DNA of 63,190 nucleotides from Alphaproteobacteria bacterium (GCA_051885475.1 JBJEXE010000066.1:1-63190), one strand, 5' to 3'. Shown: positions 9,971-35,813, counted from the stretch's first letter. Made by a program: numbers and translations. Notes: generated by a model from the letters alone, not told the origin.

Positions 9971-9996
9971 AAGCCCCTCTGTTAAGGGGCCTTTAT
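9971..9996. terminator. bidirectional hairpin between convergent genes
   Basis: GCCCCT-CTGTTA-AGGGGC with T/A-rich flanks on both sides. Confidence 0.45.
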
Positions 9997-10694
9997 TAAA
10001 AGGGCAACGAAAAAATTAAATTTCCTGAAGCATCTTCTTGCATGATACCCCCCCTGATGGCACTTTTTTTCACAGCTTCGTCCACATCAGAAAATACAAC
10101 CTTTCCTTCAGGATAGACGACACACCTTCCTGTAAAAAATTCCGGCGTTGAAATATCAAAAGAGGAACAATCAAACGGCCTTGTCAGACCTTCTCCTCTT
10201 TCATAAACACGCGCCATAATGGCAATTTGACTGGAATAATTTTCCAGCTCTCTGGCTTTATACCTATCCATTGCTATTGTATACCCGGCTACGCCACTAA
10301 CGCCCCAAACTAAAACACTCCAAAGATAGCTAAGGATACCTAAAATGCCCAAAATATACTTTGCCGGGTTGCAAATTTCAAATTCATTTCCTTTGGCATC
10401 CGTATGAATTGTAAAAATGTTAATAATTGCCCATAAATGGGTAATAATAACGCCTATAAAAAATGTCAACAAAGTAATCAGAAGTTGTGTCAAACCTCGT
10501 TTCCAACGACCAACATAAAAGTTATGAATGCCAAATATCCCAAAGAAAAAGGCCAGCAAACAATAGGCTAGCTGATTTTTTCCGCCATTGGTTTGCTGAA
10601 GTAATTTGGTTTTTTGTTGTAAAAATTCTTCTTCAGAAATAGCTCCTTTTTCTTTCAGTTCGTAAAGTTTTTCTATACTCTCTAAATTTTGCAT
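9996..10694 (-). CDS. SHOCT + TM2 domain membrane protein with extra C-terminal domain
   Basis: SHOCT-like LYELKEKGAISEEEFLQQKTKLL and a TM2-like AYCLLAFFFGIFGIHNFYVGRWKRG. The start is taken at MQNLES (10694). Confidence 0.6.
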   Translation of the reverse strand: MQNLESIEKLYELKEKGAISEEEFLQQKTKLLQQTNGGKNQLAYCLLAFFFGIFGIHNFYVGRWKRGLTQLLITLLTFFIGVIITHLWAIINIFTIHTDAKGNEFEICNPAKYILGILGILSYLWSVLVWGVSGVAGYTIAMDRYKARELENYSSQIAIMARVYERGEGLTRPFDCSSFDISTPEFFTGRCVVYPEGKVVFSDVDEAVKKSAIRGGIMQEDASGNLIFSLPF

Positions 10695-10719
10695 TGTTTT
10701 TCCTTTCTTTATAAAAAAA

Positions 10720-10911
10720 TCAATAATGCGGCGGTGGAGTTTCTTCCGATTGGGGTTTAACAAAGGATAAATCCATCGTTTCCTTCAAATTTTTATAATC
10801 CCGCATCAATTGTGCCAACAACCTGTTCAAACGAATCAGTTCCTGATTCATTTCCCCCAGTTGTTTTTCCTGCTCCATAAGGCGCATCTGTAAATCGGTA
10901 ATTTGATCCAT
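10720..10911 (-). CDS. slyX: SlyX-like coiled-coil protein
   Basis: 63 aa. ITDLQMRLMEQEKQLGEMNQELIRLNRLLAQL shows the heptad pattern typical of SlyX. Confidence 0.55.
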   Translation of the reverse strand: MDQITDLQMRLMEQEKQLGEMNQELIRLNRLLAQLMRDYKNLKETMDLSFVKPQSEETPPPHY

Positions 10912-12549: not shown

Positions 12550-12608
12550 TTTTTTCCTTTCTATTAGAGGAATTATAACACACTCTTAAAAATTCTTCAA
12601 GAATTATT

Positions 12609-12633
12609 TAAAAAGCCGGCCTGATAACCGGCT
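12609..12633 (-). terminator. rho-independent terminator closing the VirB6-like/unknown-gene operon
   Basis: The minus strand reads AGCCGG-TTATCAGG-CCGGCT followed by TTTTT. Confidence 0.6.
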
Positions 12634-12646
12634 GATTTTACCTGCG

Positions 12647-13126
12647 TTACCTGCGTGACGGAATTTTGATTTGGGCAAAAGCACCCGACGGAATCACATA
12701 CTTGCTATAAACAGGATTTTCAATGGATATAGAATTAATAGGACGTTCCGTTTGACGCAAAACATCCGGATAAAAATCTTCTACACTCTTGTCGTATGGG
12801 GTGATATTCATCATATACAGAATACACGCTTCTGAACGAGAAACACGTCCACACAAGGGAAAGCGCCCTTGAATATCAGGGTTCCGAACATATTGGAAAG
12901 GACATTCCGGTTGAGGAGGAGCCGATTCCCCACCAACCATTATAACCCCCAAGAGCAATCCCATGGCAAAAGTTCCCCCTAAAACATACCACAAATAAGG
13001 TAAAATTTTTTGTTTGGGATCTTCAGGTGCCGGTGCAGACGCTTGTTCCTCCGGTTCTTTTGGTTGAGGGGGGGTAAAACCGCTGCCACTGGGGGGCAAA
13101 GGTGCCTTAAAAATCGGTTCAGTCAT
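12647..13126 (-). CDS. hypothetical bitopic membrane protein (Pro-rich N-terminus, 1 TM, 3-Cys periplasmic domain)
   Basis: 159 aa. A PPSGSGFTPPQPKEPEE head is followed by the TM helix LWYVLGGTFAMGLLLGVIMVGG. It overlaps the upstream gene by 8 nt. Confidence 0.5.
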   Translation of the reverse strand: MTEPIFKAPLPPSGSGFTPPQPKEPEEQASAPAPEDPKQKILPYLWYVLGGTFAMGLLLGVIMVGGESAPPQPECPFQYVRNPDIQGRFPLCGRVSRSEACILYMMNITPYDKSVEDFYPDVLRQTERPINSISIENPVYSKYVIPSGAFAQIKIPSRR

Positions 13127-14279
13127 TTTGTTCTCCTTTTTTAATCAGTTGTATAAATTGAAATTGTAAAGACATCATCAGCTCCCGATAGGGGTTTCCC
13201 GGAACAGGAACACCAATAAGCATTACTTTTTGATCCAAATTATTATTCAAATCAAAAGAGGTAATTTCCCCAGAGGAACTATCCAAAGTCAAAACAGTTT
13301 GAGCTTCATTTTTCTTTTTGACAGAAGTTTTCAAAAAAACAGACAGGTCCGGATAGGACGCTTTAACAGAACATTGGTTAAAATTAAAACGGGTCCGCCA
13401 TCCGCTGGGAACTGCCACCTTTCCGGCAGCAATTAAAACAAGTGAAAAAGTCCCCTGCATTGCGGATAAAAATGTTTGATCATCCACAGAAGGCGCCAAT
13501 GTCAAGGCTTGACCCACCAACCCACTTTGAGTAACGGAAATTTTTCTGGTTCCCAATCTGTCCAAAACAAATTGCCAATGTGTTTCAAAAGACGTTGAAG
13601 AAAGGTCATATAATTTGATTTGAGCTGCCAAAATATACTTTTCCTTTACCATCATTCCCATCAAAGATTGAACTTCAGTCAACTCCGGACGCGTCAAATT
13701 CAACGTAATTTGAAAGTTTGTCCAATCAACGGAAAACGGTTCAAAATGAGCCCCGTTTAAAGCATCCAATACCGCCATCATAACCAACTTATTCGCCGGC
13801 ACTTGGATCACGGCTTTTGCTTTATGGGTCAAAAAAAGAGTCTTGGTATCCGGTTGATAGGTATAAAACAGATTACTTTGACGCACCAACTCTTCCATGA
13901 CAACAGAAAGTTCCCCTTTTAAATCATTGGCAGAAAGAGTTGGATATTTTCCTTCTTCAGCAATGACTTTAATTTGAGCGGAATCCAACAATTCCAAAAT
14001 CGCCACATCAGCTGCCTTATTGGAAAACGAAAAACCATTGACCTGATACCGTGGCAACAAACCGGTTTGTCCCGGCAAACGCACCGTAAAATCCGTTTTA
14101 GAAAGCGCCACAGAGGAAGCGATCCCCTCTCCTTCAACGACTGCATCGGAAGAACAGCGAAAGGGAAGTTCAACATCCAAATAGCGCAAGGAATCCGGAT
14201 TATTCATTAACGGAGCAGACTGGGCGGTCAAACAAACCGTCAGCAGTCCCCAAAACAATCCCTTTTTCATCCAATTCAT
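13119..14279 (-). CDS. exported hypothetical protein, weakly secretin-like
   Basis: Signal peptide MNWMKKGLFWGLLTVCLTAQSA. KYILAAQIKLYDLSSTSFETHWQ and the tail LIGVPVPGNPYRELMMSLQFQFI loosely resemble the start and end of secretin domains. 386 aa. Confidence 0.45.
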   Translation of the reverse strand: MNWMKKGLFWGLLTVCLTAQSAPLMNNPDSLRYLDVELPFRCSSDAVVEGEGIASSVALSKTDFTVRLPGQTGLLPRYQVNGFSFSNKAADVAILELLDSAQIKVIAEEGKYPTLSANDLKGELSVVMEELVRQSNLFYTYQPDTKTLFLTHKAKAVIQVPANKLVMMAVLDALNGAHFEPFSVDWTNFQITLNLTRPELTEVQSLMGMMVKEKYILAAQIKLYDLSSTSFETHWQFVLDRLGTRKISVTQSGLVGQALTLAPSVDDQTFLSAMQGTFSLVLIAAGKVAVPSGWRTRFNFNQCSVKASYPDLSVFLKTSVKKKNEAQTVLTLDSSSGEITSFDLNNNLDQKVMLIGVPVPGNPYRELMMSLQFQFIQLIKKGEQND

Positions 14280-14291
14280 CCAATTCCCCCA

Positions 14292-15392
14292 TTACTTTTT
14301 AGGTTTCAAAGAAAAGCTCAATTTTCTTTGTACACTATTTTTGGACGTTTGTGAAGTCTTTTTTTCAGTTTCCTGATTTTCAGCCAAAACTTCTTTTTCC
14401 AATTTTTGATATTGTTCCTTCACCGCTTTTTCATCCAAGGGCGCATCAGAATCTTGAATCAATTCAAATCCGTCCGGCGCAGGCCCCAGATATTCAGGTT
14501 CCGTACTTTCGTCCAAATTGCCCAAAGTTTTACGCACCTCATCCATATTGATATTTTCATCAATCAATGCCGTTGTCGCCGATTCACAGTTTTGAACAGC
14601 AATTTCAATATCTGCTTCCACCGCCTGTTTTTTACGCAAAAGAGCCTCTTCCCCGCCTTCGTATAAATCAGACAAAACCGTTTTGTCTTCCAAATCCAAA
14701 ACCGCCTGAATATCTTTGACAGTCTGACGCATTAAATCCACGGCAAAACCATAGTAAGGATAGGCAAAAACTTCCATATTATTTAATTGCAAACAACGCG
14801 CAGAAAGCCACGCTTGAACCCCCTCCAAAAGGGCAATTTCATTTTTAGCCTTTTGAACAGCAAAAGCAGACGGAGAATTCATATCAATCGTTGATTTTTG
14901 AGGTGTTTCTTCCCCCTCCTCTAGCTTTTCCGGGGAAACTGTTTCTTGGGGGGCGGGCTCTGTTGAGAGTTCTTCTCTGGGGGCTTCTTCCACCACAGAA
15001 TCGGCCTGAACAATTTCCGGTTGCGGCTCTGCCAATTTATTTTCCAACTGCTGATACAACTCTGTTCCCGGATCGCCGAAAAAATCCAACCAATGTTTTA
15101 AAACCGGTAATCTTTCCTGGACATCTGGCTCCAGCGGCTCTTTTTGTTCCAAATAGCTCTGTGTTTCCTGCCAAGCCATTAAGGCCGCGTAGTAATTAAA
15201 GGTATGGTTGAGTTTTTCCTTTAGCTCTGAAGGAAGCCCCCCCAATTGTTCAAAAACGGTTTCAGTCCAATTATCCCCCAATTCTTCAGCCAAAACAGTT
15301 ACCGTTTCCTTTAAAGAATCCTCGGTGCCTTGATAAGCTGTCAAAGCCTGAACAATTCTTTCCTCATTCATTGGACTTTCCTCCTGAAACAT
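14292..15392 (-). CDS. hypothetical acidic cytoplasmic protein
   Basis: 366-aa ORF, E/D/Q-rich, with no signal peptide or TM helix. It is tightly packed in the operon. The start may instead be MNEERIV at 15371. Confidence 0.45.
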   Translation of the reverse strand: MFQEESPMNEERIVQALTAYQGTEDSLKETVTVLAEELGDNWTETVFEQLGGLPSELKEKLNHTFNYYAALMAWQETQSYLEQKEPLEPDVQERLPVLKHWLDFFGDPGTELYQQLENKLAEPQPEIVQADSVVEEAPREELSTEPAPQETVSPEKLEEGEETPQKSTIDMNSPSAFAVQKAKNEIALLEGVQAWLSARCLQLNNMEVFAYPYYGFAVDLMRQTVKDIQAVLDLEDKTVLSDLYEGGEEALLRKKQAVEADIEIAVQNCESATTALIDENINMDEVRKTLGNLDESTEPEYLGPAPDGFELIQDSDAPLDEKAVKEQYQKLEKEVLAENQETEKKTSQTSKNSVQRKLSFSLKPKK

Positions 15393-15918
15393 CTTCTATA
15401 ATTTCCGAATAATTTTCAAAAGCAGTTTTTTTCTCCGGCGCCTTGGGGGGCGCGGTTTGTCCCAAACTTTCAAAAGTATGCAAAAGGGTTTTTATTTGTT
15501 GAACCAAGGCTTCTTTTTGGATTTTCATTTCCTGCCATTCTGCTTCTGAAATCGTAATCATCCCATTGACTTTTTTAATTTCCAAATCATTATCCGGTGT
15601 GGGCAAATACCCCTTTGTTTGCGAAACATTAACTGTATCTTGTTGTTCTGATTCGGTTTTAGAAAGATGGGCATTTTCTTCCAAAAATTCCAAATAATCT
15701 TCTACTTCTTTCCCCCCCATAAAAGTCCCAAGCAAACGTTTAACACCCGGCTTTACTTGCAACAACATTTGGTTATAACGGGAAATAAAATCTTCCCCCA
15801 AAAAGGGTAAAGAACGATAGAGATTGACCAAACGACGTGCCTCTTGCAAAGAGGTACTGTCCTTCTCTGCTTTCTTTTCTTTAAAGTGTTGTAATAAAAG
15901 CTGCGAAGCTTCCGTCAT
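15364..15918 (-). CDS. hypothetical cytoplasmic protein
   Basis: 184-aa ORF lying 10 nt downstream of the HTH gene. I recognise no motif. Confidence 0.45.
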   Translation of the reverse strand: MTEASQLLLQHFKEKKAEKDSTSLQEARRLVNLYRSLPFLGEDFISRYNQMLLQVKPGVKRLLGTFMGGKEVEDYLEFLEENAHLSKTESEQQDTVNVSQTKGYLPTPDNDLEIKKVNGMITISEAEWQEMKIQKEALVQQIKTLLHTFESLGQTAPPKAPEKKTAFENYSEIIEDVSGGKSNE

Positions 15919-15928
15919 TTTTCATCCT

Positions 15929-16897
15929 TTATAATAAAACAATCCAAACAACACGTTCCAACTGTTCAAAGGCAATATCATCCGTTTTTAAATCAGCACC
16001 CAAAATACGTGCTTGTTTTTCCAAAACAGATTGGACACGGACTAATTTATTTTGAGTTGCCCCTTTATAAACAGCCCAATCCCCTTCCCTTAAAGGCATT
16101 AAGGGAGCAATCACCAAAACTGCCCCTGCCGGTAAGGAACAACTGCCAGCCTGTAAACGCAGCGCATACAGCCCCACTTCATCTGATAAAGTAGAGGGGC
16201 ACAAAACAGCACCGACCGAATTTTCCGGATGCATCATCACTTCATCATTTTCATTGATTGTTCCGGTAATCGGCAAGGTAATTTCACGCGAAGAACCGGT
16301 ACGCATCATCAAACGGCTCATTGGTAAGTCATTATACCCCCCCTTAAACAAGCCCACTCCGGTCTTGCCGGCATTGTGTTTAAGTTCATCCAGAGCCCCT
16401 GCCGCATCCAATTCATAAATCTTCAGTTGCAATTCTTCTTCATTCATTCCCAAGGCACGTGCAATATTGGCAAAAGTTTTTTCATCCACTTCCCGTTGCC
16501 CCATTTCAATGCGATGATAAACAGATAAAGTCAACTTGGACAACTTTGCCACACCGTTCAAGGTCATTTTCTTTTGACCACGAATATAACGCAACCCTGC
16601 CCCCAAAATTTTCAACCCACCACCGATATTCATTTGATGACGGCGGTCTTGTTCATCCTGCCAAGCTTTCAAAACCTCCGGCTGCGAAGAAGTTGTTGAC
16701 ACAAATAAACTTTCGCAAGGACAATCTAAAAAAGCAGCAATTTTACGAATTTGTTCTTCATTTAAACGACGATACCCTTTTTCAATTTTACTCATCGCAG
16801 AAATGGTCAAATCCAATAAATGCGCAATTTCAATCATCCGCTTACCCCGCACACGGCGCAGCATTCTGAGTTGATTCGGGAAAACAATTTCTTCCAT
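15929..16897 (-). CDS. XRE-family regulator with two HTH domains and a C-terminal LexA/S24-fold-like domain
   Basis: Two Cro/C1-type HTH units (LRMLRRVRGKRMIEIAHLLDLTISAMSKIEKG; LRYIRGQKKMTLNGVAKLSKLTLSVYHRIEMG). The C-terminal segment AGAVLVIAPLMPLREGDWAVYKG..LVRV is beta-rich. Confidence 0.6.
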   Translation of the reverse strand: MEEIVFPNQLRMLRRVRGKRMIEIAHLLDLTISAMSKIEKGYRRLNEEQIRKIAAFLDCPCESLFVSTTSSQPEVLKAWQDEQDRRHQMNIGGGLKILGAGLRYIRGQKKMTLNGVAKLSKLTLSVYHRIEMGQREVDEKTFANIARALGMNEEELQLKIYELDAAGALDELKHNAGKTGVGLFKGGYNDLPMSRLMMRTGSSREITLPITGTINENDEVMMHPENSVGAVLCPSTLSDEVGLYALRLQAGSCSLPAGAVLVIAPLMPLREGDWAVYKGATQNKLVRVQSVLEKQARILGADLKTDDIAFEQLERVVWIVLL

Positions 16898-16981
16898 TTA
16901 ACCTCCTTTTTATTCCGTTGTTCCACTATACACTAATTTTTTATTTTAGGAAATAGACAAAAACAAAAATTTTTTAAAAAA

Positions 16982-19372
16982 TTATTTTTTTCCATCAGAA
17001 AATCCTTTTGCAACGGGAGCCTTCATCTTATTCCAGGCTGCCTGTGATTTATTTTTAACCGCTGTTTTGAGGTTTTTAGGTGCGTTTTTAATCGCCTGCC
17101 CAGCCTTTCTTAAATTTTGCGGTGTATTTTTAATCCCCCTGGTTATCGCCCCCGGTGTCTTCACCAGTCCAGAAGCAACTTTCCCTGTGGCACGAATGCC
17201 TGTTGATAAAGTTTTAGCCCCCAAGGTCAAAGGCACCCCCAGGATGGCTCCCACACCTGTTTTTGATAAAGCTTGCCCTAAACCGACCCCGAATTTATCC
17301 ACACCCGAGGCCAAATATTGAGAAGTGCGATTGACAGCGTTGCCCGCTTTTTGTCCAAAATAACGCTTGCTAGCTGCCGGCGAATTACTTTCACCCAAAT
17401 CCTTTAACGGATTTTGACCTGACTTCATACGCCCGTACGCACGCCCAGCCAAATAAGCACCACTTTTCCCATTGGGCACTTTATACGGTTTTACTTTTTG
17501 GGCCACATTGGAGGCCGGCTTCCAAACCTTGTTAGCTGTTCCTTTGATAGCGGCCATTGTCGCCAGCCCCGTTATATCACCACCAATACCACTTGTTCCG
17601 AAAAAGCTTGCAACTGTTTGCGTACAAACAGACAAAATAGAAAGTCCAATAAAAAACAAAGCCACTATCATAAAAAAGAAATACCAGCCACCATTAGAAA
17701 GAATCACATTGAGTAAATTTTCTCCATAGTCTTCGGAATAATTGGCTGTGATAGCTGCTACCAATCTATCTGTATTTCCCAATCCGGTTTCAAAGGAAAT
17801 CATAATAAAGTTGAGTGCCAAAACTAACCCCAAAAAATCGCTGATAATCCCCATCAAAAAGCTAAAACCTTTTTTGGTAAAATCCCGTGTAATCGGAAAA
17901 GCCCAAGTTGCCACAAACAACGGAATCAAAACCAAGACGAAACCGAATCTTAAGAAAATATCAATAATCTTAAAGGCAACCAAAAAGCTGAAAATTGAAA
18001 ATAAAACAACCAAAACAAGACCGACCCCCCACATTTCCAGATCCGGAAACTTCATGAGCCACAAAATCGAGGTTCCTTGGCGAAATGAAAAACCGATAAG
18101 CGATTGGCCGACTGCCGTCATGGGGGAAACTTGACGATACAATTTTTGGGTTAAACAAAGCAAATTTACCTGTAATTCTAGTGTAATCAAACTGTCAGAA
18201 GAATTAGTCAATCTTGAATAATTCTGATCCATGCCCGGAATAACCGCACCCATCAATCGCCTAGCAGGACTATTTTCCGTTCCTGAAGAACTGCTAAAAG
18301 AAAGCGTACAATAATCCGGTCCCCTGGAAGCTATCCCCACACCGGAACGCACGTCATCAGCAAAACTAAACATAGATTCATCCAGATGATCGGAAATATC
18401 CTGAGAAAGACCCAGTCCCAAACTCACAATCGGGGACAAAAAAGAGCCGTATAAAGTTTTCAAATTATCTCCTGATGATAAAATCAGCGCCGCAATCATC
18501 ATACATAAAACGCGGGTCATCAAATCCTTTAAAAAGGAAGCCCCTTTACTGGGAAAAATAACGGCCAAAAAAGCGGCATACAAAATCCACAAAAGCATAA
18601 ATATCTTCAGGATATTTATCCCCGCTTCACGCATATTCGTTTCCAAATGAGAGCTCATTGATTGGACCACCGTCAACGTAATATAGGCCATTTTGCACGG
18701 CCAACAGCCGGAATCATTCGCATCTTTGCGCATAATCTGTCCAACAGTCTTAGCAACTGTGCTCGGATGACGGCGTTCATAGGCGGAACAAAGAGTGGCA
18801 AAATAAGAGGCACAAGCCATTTCTTCCGCATTGATTCCTGCTTCAGAAAAATTTTGCTTCCATTCATTCCAATGTGAATCTTGACGGAAAGAGCGCCATG
18901 TTTTTTGTTCTGCAGCCGTCAGTTTATCCTTTTTAGTAAAACCGTCAGTGGTCTTTTTTAACCCGTTTGTCGCTTGACGAGCCCTATCCCAATCATCCTC
19001 ATCGCAAGGTTGATCCCCTTCCCAATTCTGCGCTTTGGCATTAAAGGTTTGTTGATCATATCTTTCCGCCAACTGACAAAAGGAATCTGCCCACAGAGAG
19101 TTGCTCCACAATAAAGTTCCCCCTAAAAGAACATAAATCAAGTGTTTTTTCCTGAGGAAATTTCTGGACGCCCTTTTTTCAACGACAGGGGAAGCGGCCG
19201 ACTGGCAAAAATAACGACGCCCCCAAAAACACCCCCAAATCCCTATCAACAACAAAATCAATCCCGTCAAAATAAAATGAATATACGGAATTTCAAACAG
19301 GCGAATTTTTAACATTAAGAAAAAAATCGTCCCCAAAAATAAAATTTGCAAAAGGTGTCTGAATAAATGCAT
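16982..19372 (-). CDS. VirB6/TrbL-like polytopic membrane protein, paralog 3, with Lys/Asn/Gly-rich C-terminal tail
   Basis: 796 aa with many TM helices, a CWPC motif and the LVLIPLFVATWAFPITRDFTKKGF core. It is paralogous to the two upstream ORFs, and its start overlaps the upstream stop by 1 nt. Confidence 0.55.
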   Translation of the reverse strand: MHLFRHLLQILFLGTIFFLMLKIRLFEIPYIHFILTGLILLLIGIWGCFWGRRYFCQSAASPVVEKRASRNFLRKKHLIYVLLGGTLLWSNSLWADSFCQLAERYDQQTFNAKAQNWEGDQPCDEDDWDRARQATNGLKKTTDGFTKKDKLTAAEQKTWRSFRQDSHWNEWKQNFSEAGINAEEMACASYFATLCSAYERRHPSTVAKTVGQIMRKDANDSGCWPCKMAYITLTVVQSMSSHLETNMREAGINILKIFMLLWILYAAFLAVIFPSKGASFLKDLMTRVLCMMIAALILSSGDNLKTLYGSFLSPIVSLGLGLSQDISDHLDESMFSFADDVRSGVGIASRGPDYCTLSFSSSSGTENSPARRLMGAVIPGMDQNYSRLTNSSDSLITLELQVNLLCLTQKLYRQVSPMTAVGQSLIGFSFRQGTSILWLMKFPDLEMWGVGLVLVVLFSIFSFLVAFKIIDIFLRFGFVLVLIPLFVATWAFPITRDFTKKGFSFLMGIISDFLGLVLALNFIMISFETGLGNTDRLVAAITANYSEDYGENLLNVILSNGGWYFFFMIVALFFIGLSILSVCTQTVASFFGTSGIGGDITGLATMAAIKGTANKVWKPASNVAQKVKPYKVPNGKSGAYLAGRAYGRMKSGQNPLKDLGESNSPAASKRYFGQKAGNAVNRTSQYLASGVDKFGVGLGQALSKTGVGAILGVPLTLGAKTLSTGIRATGKVASGLVKTPGAITRGIKNTPQNLRKAGQAIKNAPKNLKTAVKNKSQAAWNKMKAPVAKGFSDGKK

Positions 19373-20742
19373 TATTTTTTACCTTCCTTTGAGGGCGCCT
19401 TATTTTGTTTTGAAGCTTTTTGAGAATTGTCCTGCTGCCCTTCTTCTTGTTTATCATCAGCTTTATCCCCGGAACCGTTTTCACCGGATTCAGTGTTTGT
19501 CACCTCTTTAGCTAAATCTTTGGCCGCGCCGGCTATACCGGCCACAGCCCCCACCGGACCAGATAAAAGAGCTGCCCCTACACGAATTCCTTTCACCGCC
19601 AAATTTTTGATGGCATTAACAGCATCAATCATTGAGGATTTTCCGGCACTGTCAAAAAAGTATTTTGAAAAATCTTGAATTTTACCGGATAATTTAACCA
19701 TAACCCAAGCCAACATAGTCAAGATTAAAAAATCTGTGCCAAAGTTTTCGGCCGTCGTACGCATTCCGCCTTCTGTTGTTTGGACCGAAGCCGAAAACAT
19801 ATAGGGCATTTCCTGATTTTCATAAACGCGAAAAGTACTGATTAAGAAGGTGATGTAAATACAGCTGAACAAAATATCAAAAAAGCCGGCAAACAGGTTA
19901 TGAAACACTGTTTTAACAATCCCCTTTGGATAAGAAAAGACCCATCCCACCATCAATAAAGGAGATAACATTATAATTAAACCGATGCGAACAAAGGCAT
20001 CCACAAAAGAAAGCGGCATCATCACCACCAACCAAAGCATTCCGGCAATCAAAATAATTCCGGCAATGGTGGCACTCCAGCCTTTCATGGTCCATAATTG
20101 AAAGCCCAATCCCACATTCGCCCACAAAGCATCATAAATTTGATAGACCATCCCTTGAACACTGACCGCCAAGCCACCAAACATTCTGCTGTCGGAAACA
20201 GAGTTGGAAGAAGAAGAACCAGAAAGAGCATTTATAATATCCTGTATCTCACGTAATATGCCTGATCTATAGTTAAAACCGATTCCCAAACTTTGCTGCG
20301 GCGTTTCCAAAACTATATTTGCCATAGATAAAAATCCGTCCCCAATCGGTTGAATCACCGTCGCCCCAAAAAAATCATAAAGATAGGTCGGGTTATTTAA
20401 AAACAAAGCCACAATCATTGCTTTAAACAACACAGTGATAAAAGAAGAAAATTCCTTTTTCATATTCGGCATTGAAAAAGCGCCAACCACACGAGCGACC
20501 CGAAACAACAACCAAAAAAGCAACGCCAATTCCAACACCATCAATGAATTTTGACAGATAATATTTAAAGAGCCATCCAAGACACCGTCTATTGCTTTAA
20601 AGGCTTGCATATACATTTTGCAGGGCCAACAGTTATCTGGACTTGCCCTAAACATTTCCGCATTATAAGGAACATTGGAATCACATCCCGCCAACCAAAG
20701 CAAGAGCAAAAACATTCCCCAAATACGCATCCGTTTCATCAT
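19372..20742 (-). CDS. VirB6/TrbL-like polytopic membrane lipoprotein, paralog 2
   Basis: 456 aa with an LAGC lipobox, a CWPC motif and the IMLSPLLMVGWVFSYPKGIVKTVF core. An ATGA overlap joins it to the upstream gene. Confidence 0.55.
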   Translation of the reverse strand: MMKRMRIWGMFLLLLWLAGCDSNVPYNAEMFRASPDNCWPCKMYMQAFKAIDGVLDGSLNIICQNSLMVLELALLFWLLFRVARVVGAFSMPNMKKEFSSFITVLFKAMIVALFLNNPTYLYDFFGATVIQPIGDGFLSMANIVLETPQQSLGIGFNYRSGILREIQDIINALSGSSSSNSVSDSRMFGGLAVSVQGMVYQIYDALWANVGLGFQLWTMKGWSATIAGIILIAGMLWLVVMMPLSFVDAFVRIGLIIMLSPLLMVGWVFSYPKGIVKTVFHNLFAGFFDILFSCIYITFLISTFRVYENQEMPYMFSASVQTTEGGMRTTAENFGTDFLILTMLAWVMVKLSGKIQDFSKYFFDSAGKSSMIDAVNAIKNLAVKGIRVGAALLSGPVGAVAGIAGAAKDLAKEVTNTESGENGSGDKADDKQEEGQQDNSQKASKQNKAPSKEGKK

Positions 20743-22874
20743 GTTATGTAGTCCGATACTTGACCTGTTAAGAGGTCAGTTTTTTTATTGGTTTGCAAAT
20801 TGACTTTGAATTTTTCGGTTATGTTATTATCTTTATCGGTGGATTGTGTAAAAAATCCAGTTCTAACACCGCGTGCATCATACTGATTTGTTTCAAGGGT
20901 GGTATTTCCATCGCGATCTTTCATTGTTATTTTGGTTTCATTTCCTCTTGCATCAAATTCAGTTTGTGTAACGTTTCCATCACGATCTTTTACGGTCTTG
21001 CTCGTTTTACTTCCATTTGAATCAAACTCAGTTTTTGTGGTACCAGCGTTTGTTGTTTCCAAGGTAGACTTTTTCCTGTCCAAAGCATCATATTCTGTTG
21101 CCACTTTCGTTGAAGTGCCATCTTTATTATAACGCGTTTCGGTCATCACAGTTCCTGTTTTCATACCATTAGTCATGCTTTCGCGTTTTTGGATTTTAGA
21201 TTCCAGCTGCCCGTTGGCATTTCTGACAATTTCTTCAACTTCTTGATGCGTGACGTTACCATTGGCATCCTTAAAGACCTTAAGGTTTCTTTCTTTTGTT
21301 CCCCCGTTGGCAAGTTGCTCTCTGGAAGACGTTGTTGAAACACTTGGTCTTTGCGGTTGCGGAGTCCCGCCGCTGCCAGCAGGAGAAGGTGCATTTCCGT
21401 CTGTCGGGTTTCGGCCATAGCCTTCTGCTTCCCCTTCATGGAAAGCCTGGACAGTTTTTTTGGCCAACCCTGCCCCCGGCACATCCGACCATCTTAAAGG
21501 TTTACCGGATTTAATACGACCGGCCACAAACCCTGCGGCATAAGGAGTTTTCTTAATTCCTTCCTTGATCTCGGAAGCCCCCTTTTGAAGAACCGGCTTG
21601 GCCACTTTATTCCCCATCAAAGCAACACCAGCCATAGCTGCCCCTTCCAAAGCGGAGCCCATACCACCGCCGGTACTTCCTCCGACAAAATTATTCACAA
21701 AGCTATCCGTTTGTTTAACCAAAGCATTGGCCAGAAAAGTCATTGCCAGCATTGTGAAGAAAGTGCCCGTGGACCAATCAATCATTTTCAACGCCTCTTC
21801 TGTTTTCCCCATAGTTAAAAGTTGCCAAAAGCGAGTACTATTATCACCCAATCCATCCAAAGCAGCCCCCAAAATGGTCAGGCTCATTTGCAAAATAACT
21901 GATAAAACAATAAAAGTGACCAAGACATTTAAAAACATATCAAGGGCTTTTTTACTGTAGCCACGTGTGGCCGGTAAGACCCACAAAACAACCCATAACG
22001 GCATCAAGGCCGAAACGAACATCAACCGGAACATGGAATCTACCAACTTGAACGGAAAGGAAAGGAAAAGGCCAAATGTCATAATAAATAAACAAAGTCC
22101 CACCCCCAACATAGACCACTTTGGAAAAATCAAACCCAATTTGAAGGAATCTGTGATAAAAGTGGCCCCCAAAGCCATATACAGAATTAAGTTAGAAGAA
22201 ACTGTCTTTAAAAAACATTGAATCGCATTATTCACTTCCGGCCCGAAACCATTATTTTGAGAAGTGGTAGAAACAGAGGAAAGAGCATCGCAGGCATTTA
22301 TCCGTGTCGTTGTTCCGCTACGGGAATTCACTTGCACGGTCAATTCTCTTGCCGAATCAGTAGAGAGTATTTCCGTTGAAAAACCAATGGAAAGGGCGGT
22401 TAAAGGATTCACAACTTGCGCATAAAAACTGCCCAAATTGTATAAAACAGCCATTGCCACCAAACACTTCAAAACCGGCATAAACAACTCGGTAAAAAAT
22501 TCTTTCGGACTGGTTGCCCCGAAAGAAACAACGGCCTTCAAAACTTTAAACAAAATATAAAAGCTCAATCCCAACCCCAATAAAAGCTTCCCATCCGCTA
22601 TTAAAGTATCCGAAAGAGAAGCCGTTATCGTGTTGATGGCATTGAATAAGGTCGTAAAAATATCACAAAACCAACAGCCTTCATTAATAGAGGTAAAGGA
22701 TTCCATCACCTTAACAAATGATCCATTATCTCCAAAAAAATAGTTATAGAGCCGATAAATACCGTATGCAGCAGCAATCACAACGACAGGAGCAATCGCC
22801 TGCGCCATTATTGGTGCAAACAAGGCCGAAAGAAAAATTCCCCACCGGGCAAACTGTTTTTTAATTTTTGACAT
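20739..22874 (-). CDS. VirB6/TrbL-like polytopic membrane protein, paralog 1, with YD-repeat-like C-terminal tail
   Basis: CWFC motif and ALMPLWVVLWVLPATRGYSKKAL core. The start is taken at MSKIKKQ (22874), which follows a GGGGGA RBS; the track ORF starts at 22916. Confidence 0.55.
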   Translation of the reverse strand: MSKIKKQFARWGIFLSALFAPIMAQAIAPVVVIAAAYGIYRLYNYFFGDNGSFVKVMESFTSINEGCWFCDIFTTLFNAINTITASLSDTLIADGKLLLGLGLSFYILFKVLKAVVSFGATSPKEFFTELFMPVLKCLVAMAVLYNLGSFYAQVVNPLTALSIGFSTEILSTDSARELTVQVNSRSGTTTRINACDALSSVSTTSQNNGFGPEVNNAIQCFLKTVSSNLILYMALGATFITDSFKLGLIFPKWSMLGVGLCLFIMTFGLFLSFPFKLVDSMFRLMFVSALMPLWVVLWVLPATRGYSKKALDMFLNVLVTFIVLSVILQMSLTILGAALDGLGDNSTRFWQLLTMGKTEEALKMIDWSTGTFFTMLAMTFLANALVKQTDSFVNNFVGGSTGGGMGSALEGAAMAGVALMGNKVAKPVLQKGASEIKEGIKKTPYAAGFVAGRIKSGKPLRWSDVPGAGLAKKTVQAFHEGEAEGYGRNPTDGNAPSPAGSGGTPQPQRPSVSTTSSREQLANGGTKERNLKVFKDANGNVTHQEVEEIVRNANGQLESKIQKRESMTNGMKTGTVMTETRYNKDGTSTKVATEYDALDRKKSTLETTNAGTTKTEFDSNGSKTSKTVKDRDGNVTQTEFDARGNETKITMKDRDGNTTLETNQYDARGVRTGFFTQSTDKDNNITEKFKVNLQTNKKTDLLTGQVSDYIT
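20817..21278 (-). repeat. coding YD/RHS-like short repeats in the tail of VirB6-like paralog 1
   Basis: Recurrent D-x-(D/N)-G-N-x-T ... (Y/F)-D-x-x-G units: KDANGNVT, RYNKDGTST, EYDALDRK, EFDSNGSKT, KDRDGNVTQTEFDARGNET, KDRDGNTTLETNQYDARGVRT. Confidence 0.5.
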
Positions 22875-22957
22875 ATATCCCCCAATCTGAAATAACTTAT
22901 GAAGGTATGCTAACATAAGGATTTTTAAAAAACAAGCCTTTTTTTTGGAAAATTGAC

Positions 22958-22989
22958 AAAAAAATATGCCGGGATGAAAACCGGCATAT
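22958..22989 (-). terminator. rho-independent terminator after secF
   Basis: The minus strand reads ATATGCCGG-8 nt-CCGGCATAT followed by TTTTTTT. Confidence 0.6.
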
Positions 22990-23012
22990 CTTTTGGCAGA
23001 TAAAAAGAATAT

Positions 23013-26963: not shown

Positions 26964-28187
26964 ATGGTCCGCTTTTTATTATTTTGTTGCGTCAGTGTGT
27001 TGTGTCAAGGGGCAATGGCTCAAACATCAGCCTTGGGGATTGAATGCCAAGAAGCCGTGCGGGCCGGCGAAAACATCCGAAATCCGGCCGTCTATGCGGC
27101 GTGCGGGTTTGATGAGCGGCAAAAAGCCTTTGGTGAATGGGCGCTATGGGCCGAAAAAGAAAAAGCGGGACAAGCCCTTTATGAAATCTGTGTCAGGCAC
27201 CCTGAAGCCCCTCAAGCCGAAAGGTATTGTCAAAAGGCTGTTCAATTGGGAAACGGCCCGGCTTTGGTCAGAGCCGCAAACCAAAAATATCAGCAAAAAG
27301 AGTATGCCGCAGCGGCCGGTTTTTACACGCGCGCTTTGAGCTCCCCCCTTTTGAGCGAGGCGGAAAAAGGCGACATTTCCCAAAAAATGGGGCTTCTTTA
27401 TTTAAACCCCGACAGCAATTATTATAATCCAGCCAAGGGGCTGCTCTTGATTGAACGCGCCGTCGGGCGTCGGGGCGCCGAAGCCAATAATTTAATGGGG
27501 GTCTATGCTTTATTTGGAATGCAAGGCGTGCCCCAAAATGCCGAAAAATCCTTTGAATATTTGTGGCGGGCCGTTTTATTAGGGTGTCCCGCTGCCGAAG
27601 AAAATTTAGGCCTGTGGCATTTGGCAAAGCAAAAAAAGATAAGTACTCAAACCACCCGTCAAGAAATGTCAAAACGAATGTTTTCCTGCGTTGCACCAGA
27701 ATATGTGGCGCCAGCTGAAATTCAAAAAAATAACTGCGATTGTCAGGAAGTGGCGGAGCGGGAACGCTTGGCCGGGCTTTATCCTTACCGGTTGGTGGCC
27801 GTTGCCGAAAATTTACAGGCTGCCACGGTGTTGGATCCGCAAGGTCAGCGCATCAATGCTAAGGTCGGGACTGAACTGGGCAACAAAATGAAAGTCAGTG
27901 AAATCAAAAAAAAGGCTGTCTTTTTAACCTCGGGTGGCGCACGCATGGTGTTGAATTTGGCGCCCGTGGATAATTGCCCCGAACTGTGCCGTCAACAAAA
28001 AGCAGGAAGAGCGGCTTTGGCCAAAACAATCAAGCCCTATCACTTGACTTTTACCCCCCGCGAATGTTCGGACATTTTATATTATGCCGAACGTTTGGTT
28101 GACACAAATTTGCCCTTTACCGGCAAAACCGAGTGCAGCTTTTCGGCCGAGATGGATAAAACAACCGATTTGTTGATGAACTTGTAA
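26964..28187 (+). CDS. secreted Sel1-like repeat (SLR/TPR) protein with an extra C-terminal domain
   Basis: Signal peptide MVRFLLFCCVSVLCQGAMA. Sel1-type repeats (AEANNLMGVYALFGMQGVPQNAEKSFEYLWRAVLLGCPAAEENLG). The C-terminal roughly 170 aa do not belong to the repeat region. Confidence 0.65.
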   Translation: MVRFLLFCCVSVLCQGAMAQTSALGIECQEAVRAGENIRNPAVYAACGFDERQKAFGEWALWAEKEKAGQALYEICVRHPEAPQAERYCQKAVQLGNGPALVRAANQKYQQKEYAAAAGFYTRALSSPLLSEAEKGDISQKMGLLYLNPDSNYYNPAKGLLLIERAVGRRGAEANNLMGVYALFGMQGVPQNAEKSFEYLWRAVLLGCPAAEENLGLWHLAKQKKISTQTTRQEMSKRMFSCVAPEYVAPAEIQKNNCDCQEVAERERLAGLYPYRLVAVAENLQAATVLDPQGQRINAKVGTELGNKMKVSEIKKKAVFLTSGGARMVLNLAPVDNCPELCRQQKAGRAALAKTIKPYHLTFTPRECSDILYYAERLVDTNLPFTGKTECSFSAEMDKTTDLLMNL

Positions 28188-32579: not shown

Positions 32580-35500
32580 ATGGCAGAAATAAACGACATC
32601 ACCAAAGAATTTATCAGTCAAAACTATGCGACTTTGACACCGGAACGCATCCGCGAGTATCACAAAAAAGGGGCGGATTTGAATGCCTTGTGGCGGGACG
32701 GCTCTGCTTTGTTGCACAAATTGTGTGCATTGAGTCAAGATGATATCGCTTCTTTAGGATTATCAGGCAGCCTGCAGGCTTTGTTGGAATGCGGTGCAGA
32801 CCCCAATTTAAAAGATGCCAAGGGCCGGACAATTCTTGATTACCTGAAAAAAGGAGGTATTGAAGATCAAGAAGAAAAAAAAGCTTTGTTGAAAAAATAC
32901 GCTGCAGACATTTTGGAAGCTGTGTATGAAAAATCCCCTGCTACTCCAGAGGCCATTGCAACACCCCAAGAAGAGACTAAAAAAGAAGAGAAAAAAATGA
33001 TTGATACAAATAAAGATCCGAATTCCTTGACACCAGAAGAAGCGACGGAAAAGCTGAAGAAATTGCATTGGACAAGTATGAATGCTGATATGATCAGAAA
33101 ATACCTTGATGCCGGTGCAGATATAAATGTCAAAAATGATAACGGACACACCTTATTGACAACATTGCTCGGCCAAAATGTAGAAAGTGAAAGAGAATTT
33201 GCAAAAGAGATGTTGGCAAGAGGGGCTGATCCTAATTTAAAAAATGAACACGGCTTTGATCCATTGCATTATGCATTAGCAACTCACTCTTTGGAGAATT
33301 TAAAACTGTTAGCAGAAAATAAGGGGGATTTTTTAAGCACGCCTAAAGAACAGTTTTTCAAATATTTAAAAGGGAACCAAGAAGCCTTGGATTTTGTTGA
33401 AGAAATAATCAAGAAGCAAGGCCAAGAAAAAAGAGAATCTGAAACGGAAAAGGATAATGTTGTGGAATTGTCAGAGGCGGACTATACTATTACTCCTCAA
33501 TCTGAAATTCAAACCCAGTCCAGGAAACCTTCTGAAGCAGAATTTGCCGTAGAACAATTCAGAAAGATGAAACTTTATGGAAAAGAGGGTATTCTTTTAG
33601 GTCTAAACGATAGGGAACAAATAAAAAGATTGATAGAAAAGGGCTTAGATATCAACGCCGACTGGAACCCTAAGGAAAATCTGACTTTAGCACACTTAGC
33701 CGCCGTTGTAGGGAATAAAGAAGCTATGCAAATGCTGGACGAGATGGGAATTGATTGGAATCAAATTTGGCTCCACAATAATTTAGAATTTACAACGGCT
33801 CATTTGGCAGCACAATATAACAAAAATAATGAAGCACTGAAATTTTTAATCGGAAAAGTGGATTTTTATGCAAAAGATAAAGACGGCAAAAGTGCTTTAG
33901 ATTACATTCAATCCCCAGAAAAAAGAGCTGAAATAGAAGAGCTGATACGTAAGAGTGCAGAAAATAAGGTGGACAATGTTGTAAATCCTGAAGAACAAAA
34001 AAAACAAGCCGAGCCATCTGCCCCAGAAAATAACAACCACTCCGTTGATCCGAATGATAATGGGGAGCAAGAAGAGGGAGAAAAAAATAATAACAAGACC
34101 CCAGATCATCCCGTAAAAACAAATGATGATGGGGAACAAGACGAAGGAGAAAAAAATAATAACAAGACCCCAGATCATCCCGTAAATACGAATGATGATG
34201 GAGAACAAGATGAAGGAGAAAAAAAACAGTCTCCCACCGAAAATCAGCAAGAAAATGACACTCAGGACAATAAAAATGAGGCCCCCAAAAATGAGGCGCC
34301 CAAACAAGAAGAAAAAACTGAAGGGCGTTCAATATCCAAAGCCTTAAAAAACGCAACAGACACTTTCTTTGCCAATGTGTTCGGAGCAAATCATAAAACA
34401 GCCGAAGATTTTGCTCAAGCCATGTTATTCAACGTCTTGGCTTTCCCGTTGGAGGCGTTGGGAAATTACCTGTCACAAGAGGAAAAAAAGAAGCTGGATA
34501 AACTGGCCCAAAAAATCAATGAAAACGCCAAGCAACAGCCCTTATCCGAAGATGAACAGCGCCTGAAAAACATTATCAAATTGCAGTATTTAATGATGGC
34601 ACGCGATCCGGAAGCTTTCAAAGAACTGTATGCCGGAAAAGAAAGAATAACGCCTGAAGAAGTTGAAGGCTTTTTAAAGAACAATCCGGATTTACAAAAA
34701 CGGATGGAAAAGAATTTGGGGGAAATCGCCCAAGATCCTGAAGGCAGAGCCCTGATTGAAGCCCTATTCCCCGAAGGCTACAACGGTCGATTTTCCAAAG
34801 AAGATTTAATCGGTATTTTAACCGGACGTTTGGGGCAACAAAAACAAAATGAAAACGGTAAAAAAACCGAAGGAAAAGAGGATAACCTCAATCCACATAT
34901 TGACGGTTCCACAAATCCGCCACAAAAGCAGGCTGCAAGTCCGACGGGCACGCCGACACCAACACCTGCTCCATCAGCCTCGAAAACAAGTTCGGGGCCA
35001 ACACCTACTCCGGCGGCACCGAAAACAAGTTCGGGACCAACACCTGACCCGGCGGCACCAAAAGCACCGAAAACAAGTTCAGGACCAACACCTACCCCGG
35101 CAGCACCAAAAACAAGTTCAGGACCAACACCTGCTCCGGCGGCACCGAAAACAAGTTCGGGACCAACACCTGACCCGGTGGCACCAAAAGCACCAGATGC
35201 AAGTTCAGGGAAAACACCTGACCCGGCAGCACCAAAAGGAAAGCCAAAGAGGACTCCCGGAAAAAAATCGGCATCTCCCACCATAGGTAAAGGAAAAGGA
35301 GATGAATTCATTTTTGTAAAAGGAAAAGATGGAATAGTTCATTGGAAACCAGCTCCTCCTGTGCCACCAGTTGTGCCTCCAAAGGGGAAGCAGGCAGAAG
35401 AGCAAAAAGGCAATTCGCCGTTCACTTTGCCCGGCAACATCAGTCAAAAATCCAAAGATAAAATCATGGGCCTTTATGACCAAGTAAAGAAAGCCCCAAA

Positions 35501-35813
35501 TGCGGATAAAATAAAGCCTATTTTTGAAGAATTTATGCGTTCAAAAGAAGGAAGCTTTACGCAAAAGGCGAATGCTTGGGATTTGGCCCAGAATCACAGT
35601 GAAGAATTAAATCGTCTGAAGGATAAGTTGGGACGCTTTAATCACAGCTTAATGCAAAAAGAGCTTAATAAACTGAACGAAGGGAAAAAGAAAAACGAAC
35701 TATTAGATGCGGATACGATGAAACAAGCTTGGGGGCTTAAAAAACGTTTAGAGGCAGCTTCCAAGGCGGGCGCTCCTCATCAAAAAGACCCAAAAGGCCA
35801 TGATGGACTTTAA
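32580..35813 (+). CDS. giant ankyrin-repeat protein with internal tandem repeats and a Pro-rich region (effector-like)
   Basis: 1077 aa. Several ANK units (GADLNALWRDGSALLH, GADPNLKDAKGRTILDY, GADINVKNDNGHTLL, GADPNLKNEHGFDPLHYA, LAHLAAVVGNKEAMQML). Acidic 23-aa repeats and KTSSGPTPxPAAP repeats follow. Confidence 0.8.
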   Translation: MAEINDITKEFISQNYATLTPERIREYHKKGADLNALWRDGSALLHKLCALSQDDIASLGLSGSLQALLECGADPNLKDAKGRTILDYLKKGGIEDQEEKKALLKKYAADILEAVYEKSPATPEAIATPQEETKKEEKKMIDTNKDPNSLTPEEATEKLKKLHWTSMNADMIRKYLDAGADINVKNDNGHTLLTTLLGQNVESEREFAKEMLARGADPNLKNEHGFDPLHYALATHSLENLKLLAENKGDFLSTPKEQFFKYLKGNQEALDFVEEIIKKQGQEKRESETEKDNVVELSEADYTITPQSEIQTQSRKPSEAEFAVEQFRKMKLYGKEGILLGLNDREQIKRLIEKGLDINADWNPKENLTLAHLAAVVGNKEAMQMLDEMGIDWNQIWLHNNLEFTTAHLAAQYNKNNEALKFLIGKVDFYAKDKDGKSALDYIQSPEKRAEIEELIRKSAENKVDNVVNPEEQKKQAEPSAPENNNHSVDPNDNGEQEEGEKNNNKTPDHPVKTNDDGEQDEGEKNNNKTPDHPVNTNDDGEQDEGEKKQSPTENQQENDTQDNKNEAPKNEAPKQEEKTEGRSISKALKNATDTFFANVFGANHKTAEDFAQAMLFNVLAFPLEALGNYLSQEEKKKLDKLAQKINENAKQQPLSEDEQRLKNIIKLQYLMMARDPEAFKELYAGKERITPEEVEGFLKNNPDLQKRMEKNLGEIAQDPEGRALIEALFPEGYNGRFSKEDLIGILTGRLGQQKQNENGKKTEGKEDNLNPHIDGSTNPPQKQAASPTGTPTPTPAPSASKTSSGPTPTPAAPKTSSGPTPDPAAPKAPKTSSGPTPTPAAPKTSSGPTPAPAAPKTSSGPTPDPVAPKAPDASSGKTPDPAAPKGKPKRTPGKKSASPTIGKGKGDEFIFVKGKDGIVHWKPAPPVPPVVPPKGKQAEEQKGNSPFTLPGNISQKSKDKIMGLYDQVKKAPNADKIKPIFEEFMRSKEGSFTQKANAWDLAQNHSEELNRLKDKLGRFNHSLMQKELNKLNEGKKKNELLDADTMKQAWGLKKRLEAASKAGAPHQKDPKGHDGL
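34053..34226 (+). repeat. 69-nt in-frame tandem repeat, about 2.5 copies (NDxGEQxEGEKNNNKTPDHPVxT)
   Basis: Units at 34053-34121 and 34122-34190 are near-identical. A partial third unit follows. Confidence 0.85.
34953..35240 (+). repeat. 39/48-nt in-frame tandem repeats encoding KTSSGPTP(T/D/A)PAAP(KAP), about 6 copies
   Basis: Units start at 34983, 35022, 35070, 35109 and 35148, with a degenerate unit at 35196. Confidence 0.85.

Follow-up and report, generated by a model that had tools for sequence, protein, structure and literature searches.

A 63,190-nucleotide contig of a metagenome-assembled genome (MAG) that NCBI labels Alphaproteobacteria bacterium (GCA_051885475.1 JBJEXE010000066.1:1-63190), referred to here in its full length as the window, contains between positions 12,647 and 16,897 a cassette of five minus-strand genes that encode, in order, a regulator of 322 amino acids (aa) and the proteins p184, p366, p386 and p159. 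The cassette lies directly downstream of three genes for VirB6-like proteins (B6a, B6b and B6c), and the finding belongs to secretin-based envelope machinery, as p386 has in its structural model the fold of a secretin. The reading favored here, to which we would give an even chance, is that the cassette is a self-regulated, chromosomally fixed module that has a small secretin as its working part and an ancestry in the type IVb pilus/type IV secretion system (T4SS) of conjugative elements. Together, the secretin cassette and the VirB6-like trio fit no described secretion, pilus or phage-export system, and literature searches turned up no account of this cassette or of any secretin that is coupled to VirB6-like proteins. 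An earlier reading of the same DNA, the original prediction, had described a set of unrecognizable proteins attached to a VirB6-like triplet; profile searches place none of the five in an unrelated, already characterized family.

The structural evidence for a secretin comes from p386 (13119..14279, minus strand; NCBI locus tag ACI4OR_04330), an exported protein of 386 aa. Its AlphaFold2 model, built on 29 family members (predicted local distance difference test score (pLDDT) 81, predicted template-modeling score (pTM) 0.73), is ordered as a signal peptide, an unmodeled N-terminal peptide, an N0 domain, an N1-like domain and a secretin core. The N-terminal peptide (LDxELPFRC) is highly conserved, yet left unmodeled in this structure. 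The N0/STN-like domain (residues ~79-151) and the N1-like domain (~154-213) are each modeled with a β-α-β-β arrangement, and the C-terminal region that forms the core (~215-380) is modeled as long β-hairpins. Comparison with the PDB using Foldseek gave 25 matches at E ≤ 0.001, the first 24 of which are all secretins (prob 0.82-1.0), with BfpB (9u5s, E 1.4e-10) the best match, followed by PilQ, GspD, InvG, ExeD, PulD and XcpQ. These matches are to full-length secretins or to secretin-domain barrels, with crystal structures of N0 domains found lower in the list. The pIV protein of phage f1 is among the viral fold matches, and p386 as a whole is about as large as that protein.

Sequence comparisons of the p386 family also lead to secretins. 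An exhaustive HMMER search among 1.84 billion representative proteins returned 145 hits, about 48 of which (E < 1e-30) are the p386 family itself; nine of the ten weaker hits that were checked (E 1e-13 to 1e-3) are bona fide PF00263 secretins, two of which additionally carry TcpQ and STN domains. Weak STN matches are also found in two of the 29 family members. In a profile-profile comparison with 34 canonical secretins (PF00263, PilN/TcpQ-type), hhalign aligned p386 at 99.4% (E 3e-21) over residues 56-306, a region that takes in the N0 domain, the N-domain and the strands with which the core begins. The resemblance to a secretin that had been suspected for the 386-aa exported protein is thus borne out by the model, by Foldseek and by hhalign, and the choice between a secretin-like fold and a soluble periplasmic protein falls to the former. 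The accompanying description of the protein as half the normal size was misleading, however. The core of about 166 aa (215-380) has the same length as the PF00263 regions of its relatives (e.g. residues 300-466 of P0123), i.e. the full length of the Pfam Secretin core, and p386 is therefore a minimal secretin, not a half-length one. We infer that it assembles as a ring multimer and forms a gated channel in the outer membrane. Information about its ancestry is provided by P0123, the closest canonical relative examined, whose locus joins TrbI and CagX, which are T4SS components, with T2SSE and T2SSF; this mixture of T4SS and type IV pilus genes points to a conjugative-element type IVb pilus as the source.

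The lipoprotein-type secretins of type IVb pili (BfpB of EPEC, TcpC of V. cholerae and the PilN proteins of the thin pili of R64 and of integrative conjugative elements), which have BfpG/TcpQ as small partners, illustrate both how closely p386 follows a known pattern and where it departs from it. BfpB is the best fold match, and the relatives of p386 by sequence profile are PF00263 secretins, in some cases with a TcpQ or STN domain. Both groups are built from an N-terminal peptide, N0, one N-domain and the core with no evident S-domain, both have an adjacent gene for a small partner, and a distant homolog of p386 in Ca. Enterousia-type genomes has a lipobox (LTGC). In contrast, the Pfam Secretin model misses p386, and in the window clade no conserved Cys, i.e. 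no lipobox, is found at the end of the signal peptide. The partner encoded in the cassette, p159, is a bitopic inner-membrane protein without similarity to TcpQ; the cassette has no genes in cis for a pilin, a prepilin peptidase, a PilB-type ATPase or a PilC-type platform; and it is chromosomal and vertically conserved, not carried on a mobile element. The export system of filamentous phages (pIV with the pI/pXI ATPase) represents a second point of comparison. Here the common features are a minimal secretin of similar size, with N0, one N-domain and core, and a phage-type helix-turn-helix (HTH) repressor with an S24-like domain, whereas the cassette differs in encoding neither a Zot/pI ATPase nor any coat or replication protein, in having no relatives among viral contigs, and in its conserved synteny within the chromosomal core.

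How firmly the five genes are held together is apparent from 36 loci, most with a relative of a cassette gene, that were fetched and scanned using hidden Markov models of the families. Among the loci examined, the order regulator-p184-p366-secretin-p159 is invariant wherever it is visible, and the five genes remain intact in that order from ~100% down to ~30-40% amino-acid identity, so that the five open reading frames (ORFs) are real genes, conserved far beyond chance. The genomic surroundings are far more varied. In the window clade, the block lies between secF and gltX, down to 41% secretin identity; elsewhere, tsaB-rimI is found downstream on the opposite strand (L025/L026) or upstream on the same strand (L022), the neighborhood is one of glycosyltransferase and TspO genes (L027/L028), or groES/EL lies downstream of a p366-secretin-p159 core (L019/L020). 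B6 genes are directly upstream in 14 of the 17 loci with a visible upstream side, including L023 and L025/L026, where the adjacency is kept though the surrounding genes differ. A survey of gene neighborhoods thus finds the cassette conserved and usually linked to VirB6-like genes, with the linkage proposed earlier standing for these 14 loci and failing for the other three. Coupling between the cassette and the B6 genes is frequent, not obligatory, because the cassette has its own promoter-like element and B6-free lineages exist.

Fixation in the chromosome is supported by both the neighborhood and the searches of mobile elements. The rest of the window consists of housekeeping genes such as rpsA, secA, polA, ATP synthase and Sua5, as identified in Pfam scans. 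No relatives of p386 or p366 were found by tblastn on 72,556 plasmids, and none of the cassette were found by a pattern scan of IMG/VR (2.9 million viral contigs), results that argue against a present-day plasmid or prophage origin. For the eight proteins encoded by the B6 trio and the cassette, PHROGs gave generic HTH matches only, and the Pfam, NCBIfam, PHROGs and PADLOC scans taken together returned HTH domains and a sub-threshold TrbL match only. A defense system was considered and was rejected by the PADLOC scan.

The first gene of the cassette (15929..16897, minus strand) provides the basis for calling the module self-regulated. Its 322-aa product contains two XRE-type HTH units (Pfam HTH_3, 1.3e-15, in two stretches) and a non-catalytic C-terminal domain of the S24/LexA type. 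The profile of this C-terminal domain matches the orthologous regulator of L027 at 4e-39, and the L027 protein in turn passes the 23.3-bit cut-off of PF00717 (Peptidase_S24) with a score of 26.7 bits. When the family is aligned with E. coli LexA, the position equivalent to Ser119 is occupied by S, S, L, F, L or G, and that equivalent to Lys156 mostly by Arg. Pfam, the L027 ortholog and the LexA alignment therefore agree with the architecture first proposed for this protein, two XRE-type HTH units joined to an S24-like domain without a Ser/Lys dyad. A catalytic, LexA-like regulator was rejected on these grounds; as the dyad is not conserved, RecA-stimulated self-cleavage is unlikely, and the S24-like domain probably serves only for oligomerization or for binding a ligand or partner. 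The order of an N-terminal HTH followed by a C-terminal S24-fold domain is shared with the LexA/lambda CI family, from which the cassette regulator differs in its two tandem HTH units instead of one and in the unconserved dyad. Other matches of the regulator are to the RstR family (5.7e-7) and to PHROG transcriptional regulators, through the generic HTH only, and a profile search of PDB sequences with its C-terminal domain returned nothing significant.

Upstream of the regulator gene, the 84-nt AT-rich gap that follows B6c contains a -10-like element, GTGTATAGT (16925..16933, minus strand), 27 nt before the regulator ATG. In ten orthologous intergenic regions, which are otherwise variable, G-T-G-T-A-T-A and the final T of this element are invariant and only its eighth base varies. 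A search for an operator in the 84-nt gap found only this -10-like motif and no convincing palindrome. It is thus probable that the cassette is transcribed from a promoter of its own. No terminator follows B6c, and transcription may also continue into the cassette from the B6 genes.

The products of the other three cassette genes have no match in Pfam, NCBIfam, PHROGs, PADLOC or PDB sequences. The first, p184 (15364..15918, minus strand; 184 aa), is an acidic cytoplasmic protein (isoelectric point (pI) 5.17) with no transmembrane segment, in which alignment distinguishes a helical N-domain and a GYLPxPxxD motif, besides a segment resembling a coiled coil and an acidic tail (YSEIIE). The second, p366, is very acidic (pI 4.3) and likewise cytoplasmic, with no transmembrane segment; its two highly conserved domains are separated by a variable acidic linker and are accompanied by an invariant basic tail, QRKLSFSLKPKK. 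Throughout the 175 clusters of its family, only hypothetical proteins from MAGs of Alphaproteobacteria are found, none with a Pfam domain. The acidic character and want of recognized motifs noted before for both proteins are confirmed, with pI values of 5.2 and 4.3, no transmembrane segment and no family match. Much enlarged homologs of p184 and p366 occur in distant lineages (879 aa and 537-656 aa, respectively; L023 5634-8273, L019 404-2374 and L027 7257-8870). The enlargements are internal repeats or linker insertions, with the terminal conserved domains retained, and the p184 profile matches three times inside the 879-aa protein.

The last gene, p159 (12647..13126, minus strand), is always directly downstream of the secretin gene and encodes a bitopic inner-membrane protein of 159 aa. 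Alignment reveals an invariant cytoplasmic N-terminal peptide, MTEPIFKAP, and a variable Pro/Gln-rich linker, which are followed by one transmembrane segment (~44-66) and a periplasmic domain of ~85 aa. Of its Cys residues at positions 75, 92 and 101, the latter two are invariant; the single transmembrane helix and three Cys residues reported before are thus found as described. The possibility that p159 is a TcpQ/BfpG-like partner was considered, and sequence comparison did not support it (hhalign against TcpQ-domain proteins 0.2%, no Pfam TcpQ match).

The three genes upstream of the cassette encode polytopic proteins, all on the minus strand. B6a (20739..22916; 725 aa) is a VirB6/TrbL-like inner-membrane protein with a CWFC motif and a hydrophilic C-terminal extension, B6b (19372..20742; 456 aa) has a lipobox (LAGC) and a CWPC motif, and B6c (16982..19372; 796 aa) combines a CWPC motif with a Lys/Gly/Ala-rich C-terminal tail. 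Transmembrane-like segments are found in B6a, which is paralogous to B6c (BLASTP 3e-28), B6c being in turn paralogous to B6b; B6c orthologs occupy the syntenic position. Pfam TrbL (PF04610) matches three of 22 B6 proteins. B6a reaches 23.1 bits (6.9e-5) over positions 18-203 of the 215-position profile, and an ortholog in L023 reaches 25.2 bits (E 2e-5), both just under the cut-off of 25.9. At the level of fold, the top nine PDB matches of the B6b model by Foldseek are all TrwI/VirB6 of R388 (prob 0.84-1.0, template-modeling (TM) score by target 0.41-0.56), and those that follow are noise (prob ≤ 0.2). The B6 profile did not match VirB6 among PDB sequences, and a word-indexed search for homologs of B6b yielded nothing beyond close, unannotated orthologs. 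The VirB6-like label that had been given to the trio is thus supported at the fold level, and a VirB6/TrbL fold may be assigned to the three proteins with moderate confidence from the B6b model.

Compared with the VirB6/TrbL proteins of T4SSs, the trio shows a mixture of likeness and difference. The B6b model matches only TrwI/VirB6 above noise, and several B6 orthologs have near-threshold matches to Pfam TrbL. Tandem VirB6 paralogs with long hydrophilic extensions are also known from Rickettsia, as the RvhB6 proteins of rvh systems, and resemble the B6 trio. On the other hand, no VirB2-5, VirB7-11 or VirD4 genes are found near the trio, B6b is a predicted lipoprotein, and all three proteins carry CW[FP]C. 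In the B6b lipobox (residues 17-20), G19 is invariant and C20 is conserved at 90% or more, from which a lipid-anchored polytopic protein is predicted; the CW[FP]C (CxxC) motif follows the first hydrophobic segment in all three paralogs (residues 38-41 in B6b). Such lipobox and CxxC features are unusual for VirB6/TrbL proteins. In L025 (1311-7980), the B6 array upstream of the cassette consists of five to six ORFs that match the B6 profile, two of them short (199 and 204 aa) with an N-terminal match only, which suggests further duplication or splitting of the paralogs.

The machinery that usually accompanies secretins and VirB6 proteins was searched for in the window and in the other loci, 427 kb in all, where tblastn gave no match to GspE/PilB, a PilC-type platform, VirB9/CagX or TcpQ. 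No prepilin-like ORF is present in the 63-kb window, and genes for a prepilin, PilB/GspE or PilC/GspF are missing from the window and, at every locus, from the DNA up to 10 kb away from the cassette. Among the window ORFs scanned, neither a VirB4 ATPase nor a VirB7/9/10-type outer-membrane complex was found. These searches are in accord with the earlier remark that pilin, ATPase and other VirB genes are missing from the vicinity.

A mechanism can be proposed for how these parts might work. Exported by Sec, p386 would multimerize into a gated channel in the outer membrane, with an ancestry in type IVb pili (PilN/BfpB/TcpC-like). p159 would reside in the inner membrane, with its ~85-aa, disulfide-bonded periplasmic domain docking on the periplasmic part of the secretin, for which the conserved N-terminal peptide of p386 or its N0 domain is the candidate site. 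In the bundle-forming pilus protein BfpB, the small partner BfpG is bound through a segment upstream of N0 (PMC12531336), and by analogy the p386 segment that matches it is a candidate site for p159. As its gene is always next after that of p386, p159 is the obvious candidate for a tether between the secretin and the inner membrane, p184 and p366, and its invariant cytoplasmic N-terminal peptide might recruit these two acidic proteins. The double-HTH, non-cleaving S24-like regulator would control the cassette via the promoter-like element before its own gene, and in most lineages the B6 trio would supply an inner-membrane conduit or platform. In this manner the parts might form one structure reaching from the cytoplasm to the outer membrane. 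The module would most likely descend from the type IVb pilus/T4SS gene set of a conjugative element, which, once settled in the chromosome, was stripped of the ATPase, platform and pilin genes encoded in cis. Its likely role would be to carry a macromolecule or filament through the outer membrane when the cell interacts with others.

A more ambitious proposal, which we regard as tentative and rather doubtful, is that all eight genes encode an undescribed envelope-spanning apparatus in which a secretin gate is joined via p159, p184 and p366 to VirB6-fold proteins. It is just as speculative that such an apparatus would be a chimera of T4SS and type IV pilus, retained in gut Alphaproteobacteria without the known ATPase, platform and pilin set, that serves the contact-dependent acquisition or exchange of macromolecules.

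Several observations weigh against the favored interpretation of the cassette as a secretin module of conjugative ancestry, or against its coupling to the B6 proteins. Global TM-scores of p386 to solved secretins are low (0.15-0.29), as is expected when a monomer model is compared with protomers taken from rings. PF00263 matches neither p386 nor any of its 29 family members, even at E ≤ 10; NCBIfam also has nothing for p386, and a profile search of PDB sequences with its alignment returned nothing significant. Nor are the last ~90 residues of p386 significant alone in profile-profile comparison with canonical secretins (91 tested); a forced alignment of these 91 residues is collinear, placing RELMMSLQFQFI against RSELVxxLxPRV, and as the segment is too divergent for profiles, membership of the core rests on the fold. 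For p159, no sequence similarity to TcpQ/BfpG domains is seen (hhalign 0.2%), and the B6b model reaches no more than moderate confidence (pLDDT 63). Neither an ATPase nor a platform protein, pilin or substrate was identified in cis, which leaves the module without a known way to power transport. Finally, the cassette occurs without adjacent B6 genes in three of the 17 loci (L022, L027 and L028), and the distant secretin homologs of Ca. Enterousia-type genomes (~25% identity) are lipoproteins that stand alone, without the other cassette genes (L014-L017, L031-L036).

The region 9818-13139 of L015 exemplifies this solitary type. The homolog there is a 444-aa lipoprotein mini-secretin with the lipobox LTGC; its gene is followed directly by a lolC-like (FtsX/MacB_PCD) and a lolD-like (ABC) gene and is divergent from ftsQ/ftsA. 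Two small bitopic Cys-containing proteins are encoded after lolD at the same locus. Ca. Enterousia and the MAG of locus L017 belong to the order Rs-D84, whose genomes measure less than ~1 Mb and whose members have been proposed to be partner-dependent symbionts or parasites with many uncharacterized membrane proteins (PMC12306168).

Alternative explanations must account for the same set of observations. Of these, the one that survives best, though it is unlikely, holds that the B6 trio is part of a scattered, Rickettsiales-style T4SS and that the cassette is a separate secretin operon of unrelated function, so that the two are neighbors by chance. The conserved -10-like element of the cassette, the 84-nt gap after B6c and the B6-free cassettes of L022 and L027/L028 would all be natural under this explanation, and scattered virB6 paralog arrays are known in Rickettsia (PMC2653234). 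It fits less well with an adjacency that survives altered flanks in L023 and L025/L026, with the continuity of eight genes on the same strand and no terminator between B6c and the regulator gene, and with the position of the B6 genes behind a secF terminator instead of behind virB3/virB4.

A second alternative, which appears improbable, is that the cassette is the detached secretin operon of a type IV pilus, a Tad pilus or a type II secretion system (T2SS) encoded elsewhere, with p159, p184 and p366 acting as lineage-specific assembly or alignment factors. p386 is homologous to secretins of the type IVb pilus type, secretin genes are sometimes encoded apart from the other pilus genes in other bacteria, and the portion of this genome inspected is 63 kb. 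Difficult to reconcile with a detached operon are the regulator and the two large cytoplasmic proteins, which have no counterpart in known pilus operons, and the failure to find prepilin, PilB/GspE or PilC/GspF within the window or up to 10 kb from the cassette at any locus. Type IV pili are, moreover, not among the features reported for Rs-D84 genomes, though they are reported for another lineage in the same study (PMC12306168), an observation that covers the Enterousia-type relatives only.

The notion that the cassette is what a decaying filamentous prophage or integrative conjugative element has left behind, with a CI/RstR-like repressor, a pIV-like secretin and no present cellular function, draws on the phage-repressor character of the regulator (RstR 5.7e-7, PHROG regulators, S24-like domain), on a secretin that is about the size of pIV and has f1 pIV among its viral fold matches, and on the presence of the closest canonical secretins in conjugative loci, but it is very improbable and the least likely of the three because the five genes remain intact and in the same order across deep divergence (~30-40% identity), genes for an integrase, a Zot-like ATPase, a coat protein or replication are missing, the plasmid and viral collections yielded no relatives, and the surroundings are housekeeping genes.

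The significance of a chromosomal secretin module of this kind lies in the contrast with known systems. To our knowledge, all described secretin channels function in T2SSs, type III secretion systems, type IV or Tad pili or filamentous-phage export, each with an ATPase and an inner-membrane platform of its own, and type IV secretion is the only other setting in which VirB6-fold proteins are known. The T4SSs known so far build their outer-membrane complex from VirB7/9/10, not from a secretin. The cassette, found in uncultured gut Alphaproteobacteria, ties a divergent secretin family to a set of five genes in fixed order. If the parts work together, a secretin gate and an inner-membrane component of T4SSs would be seen linked for the first time, and the module would be a concrete candidate for how these poorly understood gut bacteria interact with other cells. 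Even a conservative reading yields a new secretin subfamily missed by current family models, three new protein families (p184, p366 and p159) and, as far as sequence can tell, a putative family of double-HTH, non-cleaving S24-like regulators.

The layout of the locus is largely as first described, with one correction. Five same-strand ORFs were indeed found next to the VirB6-like triplet, and the block of eight genes is flanked by secD/secF upstream of the trio and by gltX downstream of the cassette. Re-measured in cassette order, the gaps are +84 (B6c to regulator), +10, -8, +12 and -8 nt. All of the spacings first given stand except an overlap of -29 between p184 and p366, which arose because the start of the longest ORF was used (14292..15392, minus strand; 366 aa). 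In orthologs and in the NCBI record p366 begins at Met8, at position 15371, which is preceded by an AGGAGG Shine-Dalgarno site; the corrected product (14292..15371, minus strand) has 359 aa, and the overlap is therefore 8 nt, ATGAATGA, mirroring the 8-nt overlap of p386 and p159, ATGACTGA.

At its downstream end, the cassette is closed ahead of gltX by an intrinsic-terminator-like hairpin and T-run (12604..12633, minus strand). The hairpin reported there is present at 12633-12614 on the minus strand, with an 8-bp stem that includes 5 GC pairs, a 4-nt loop and a TTTT tail, and a promoter-like site for gltX follows it at 12600-12572. At the upstream end, the region between secF and B6a (22917..23012, minus strand), as read directly from the sequence, contains a terminator-like hairpin 3' of secF and then a promoter-like TTGTCA.

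Other genes of the window may also be mentioned. Just beyond gltX, a 255-aa protein (9996-10763, minus strand) joins SHOCT and TM2 domains; its gene is missing at the matching position in L002 and L005, where slyX comes after gltX. Two further ORFs match no Pfam family at E ≤ 1e-5, one of 407 aa with a signal-peptide-like N terminus (26964-28187, plus strand) and one of 450 aa (45106-46458, plus strand). At 32580-35813 on the plus strand, amid the housekeeping genes, lies the gene for a 1077-aa ankyrin-repeat protein (Pfam Ank_2, 6e-18). In host-associated Alphaproteobacteria, proteins with such repeats typically serve as translocated effectors. A small ankyrin-like ORF also follows the cassette in L022.

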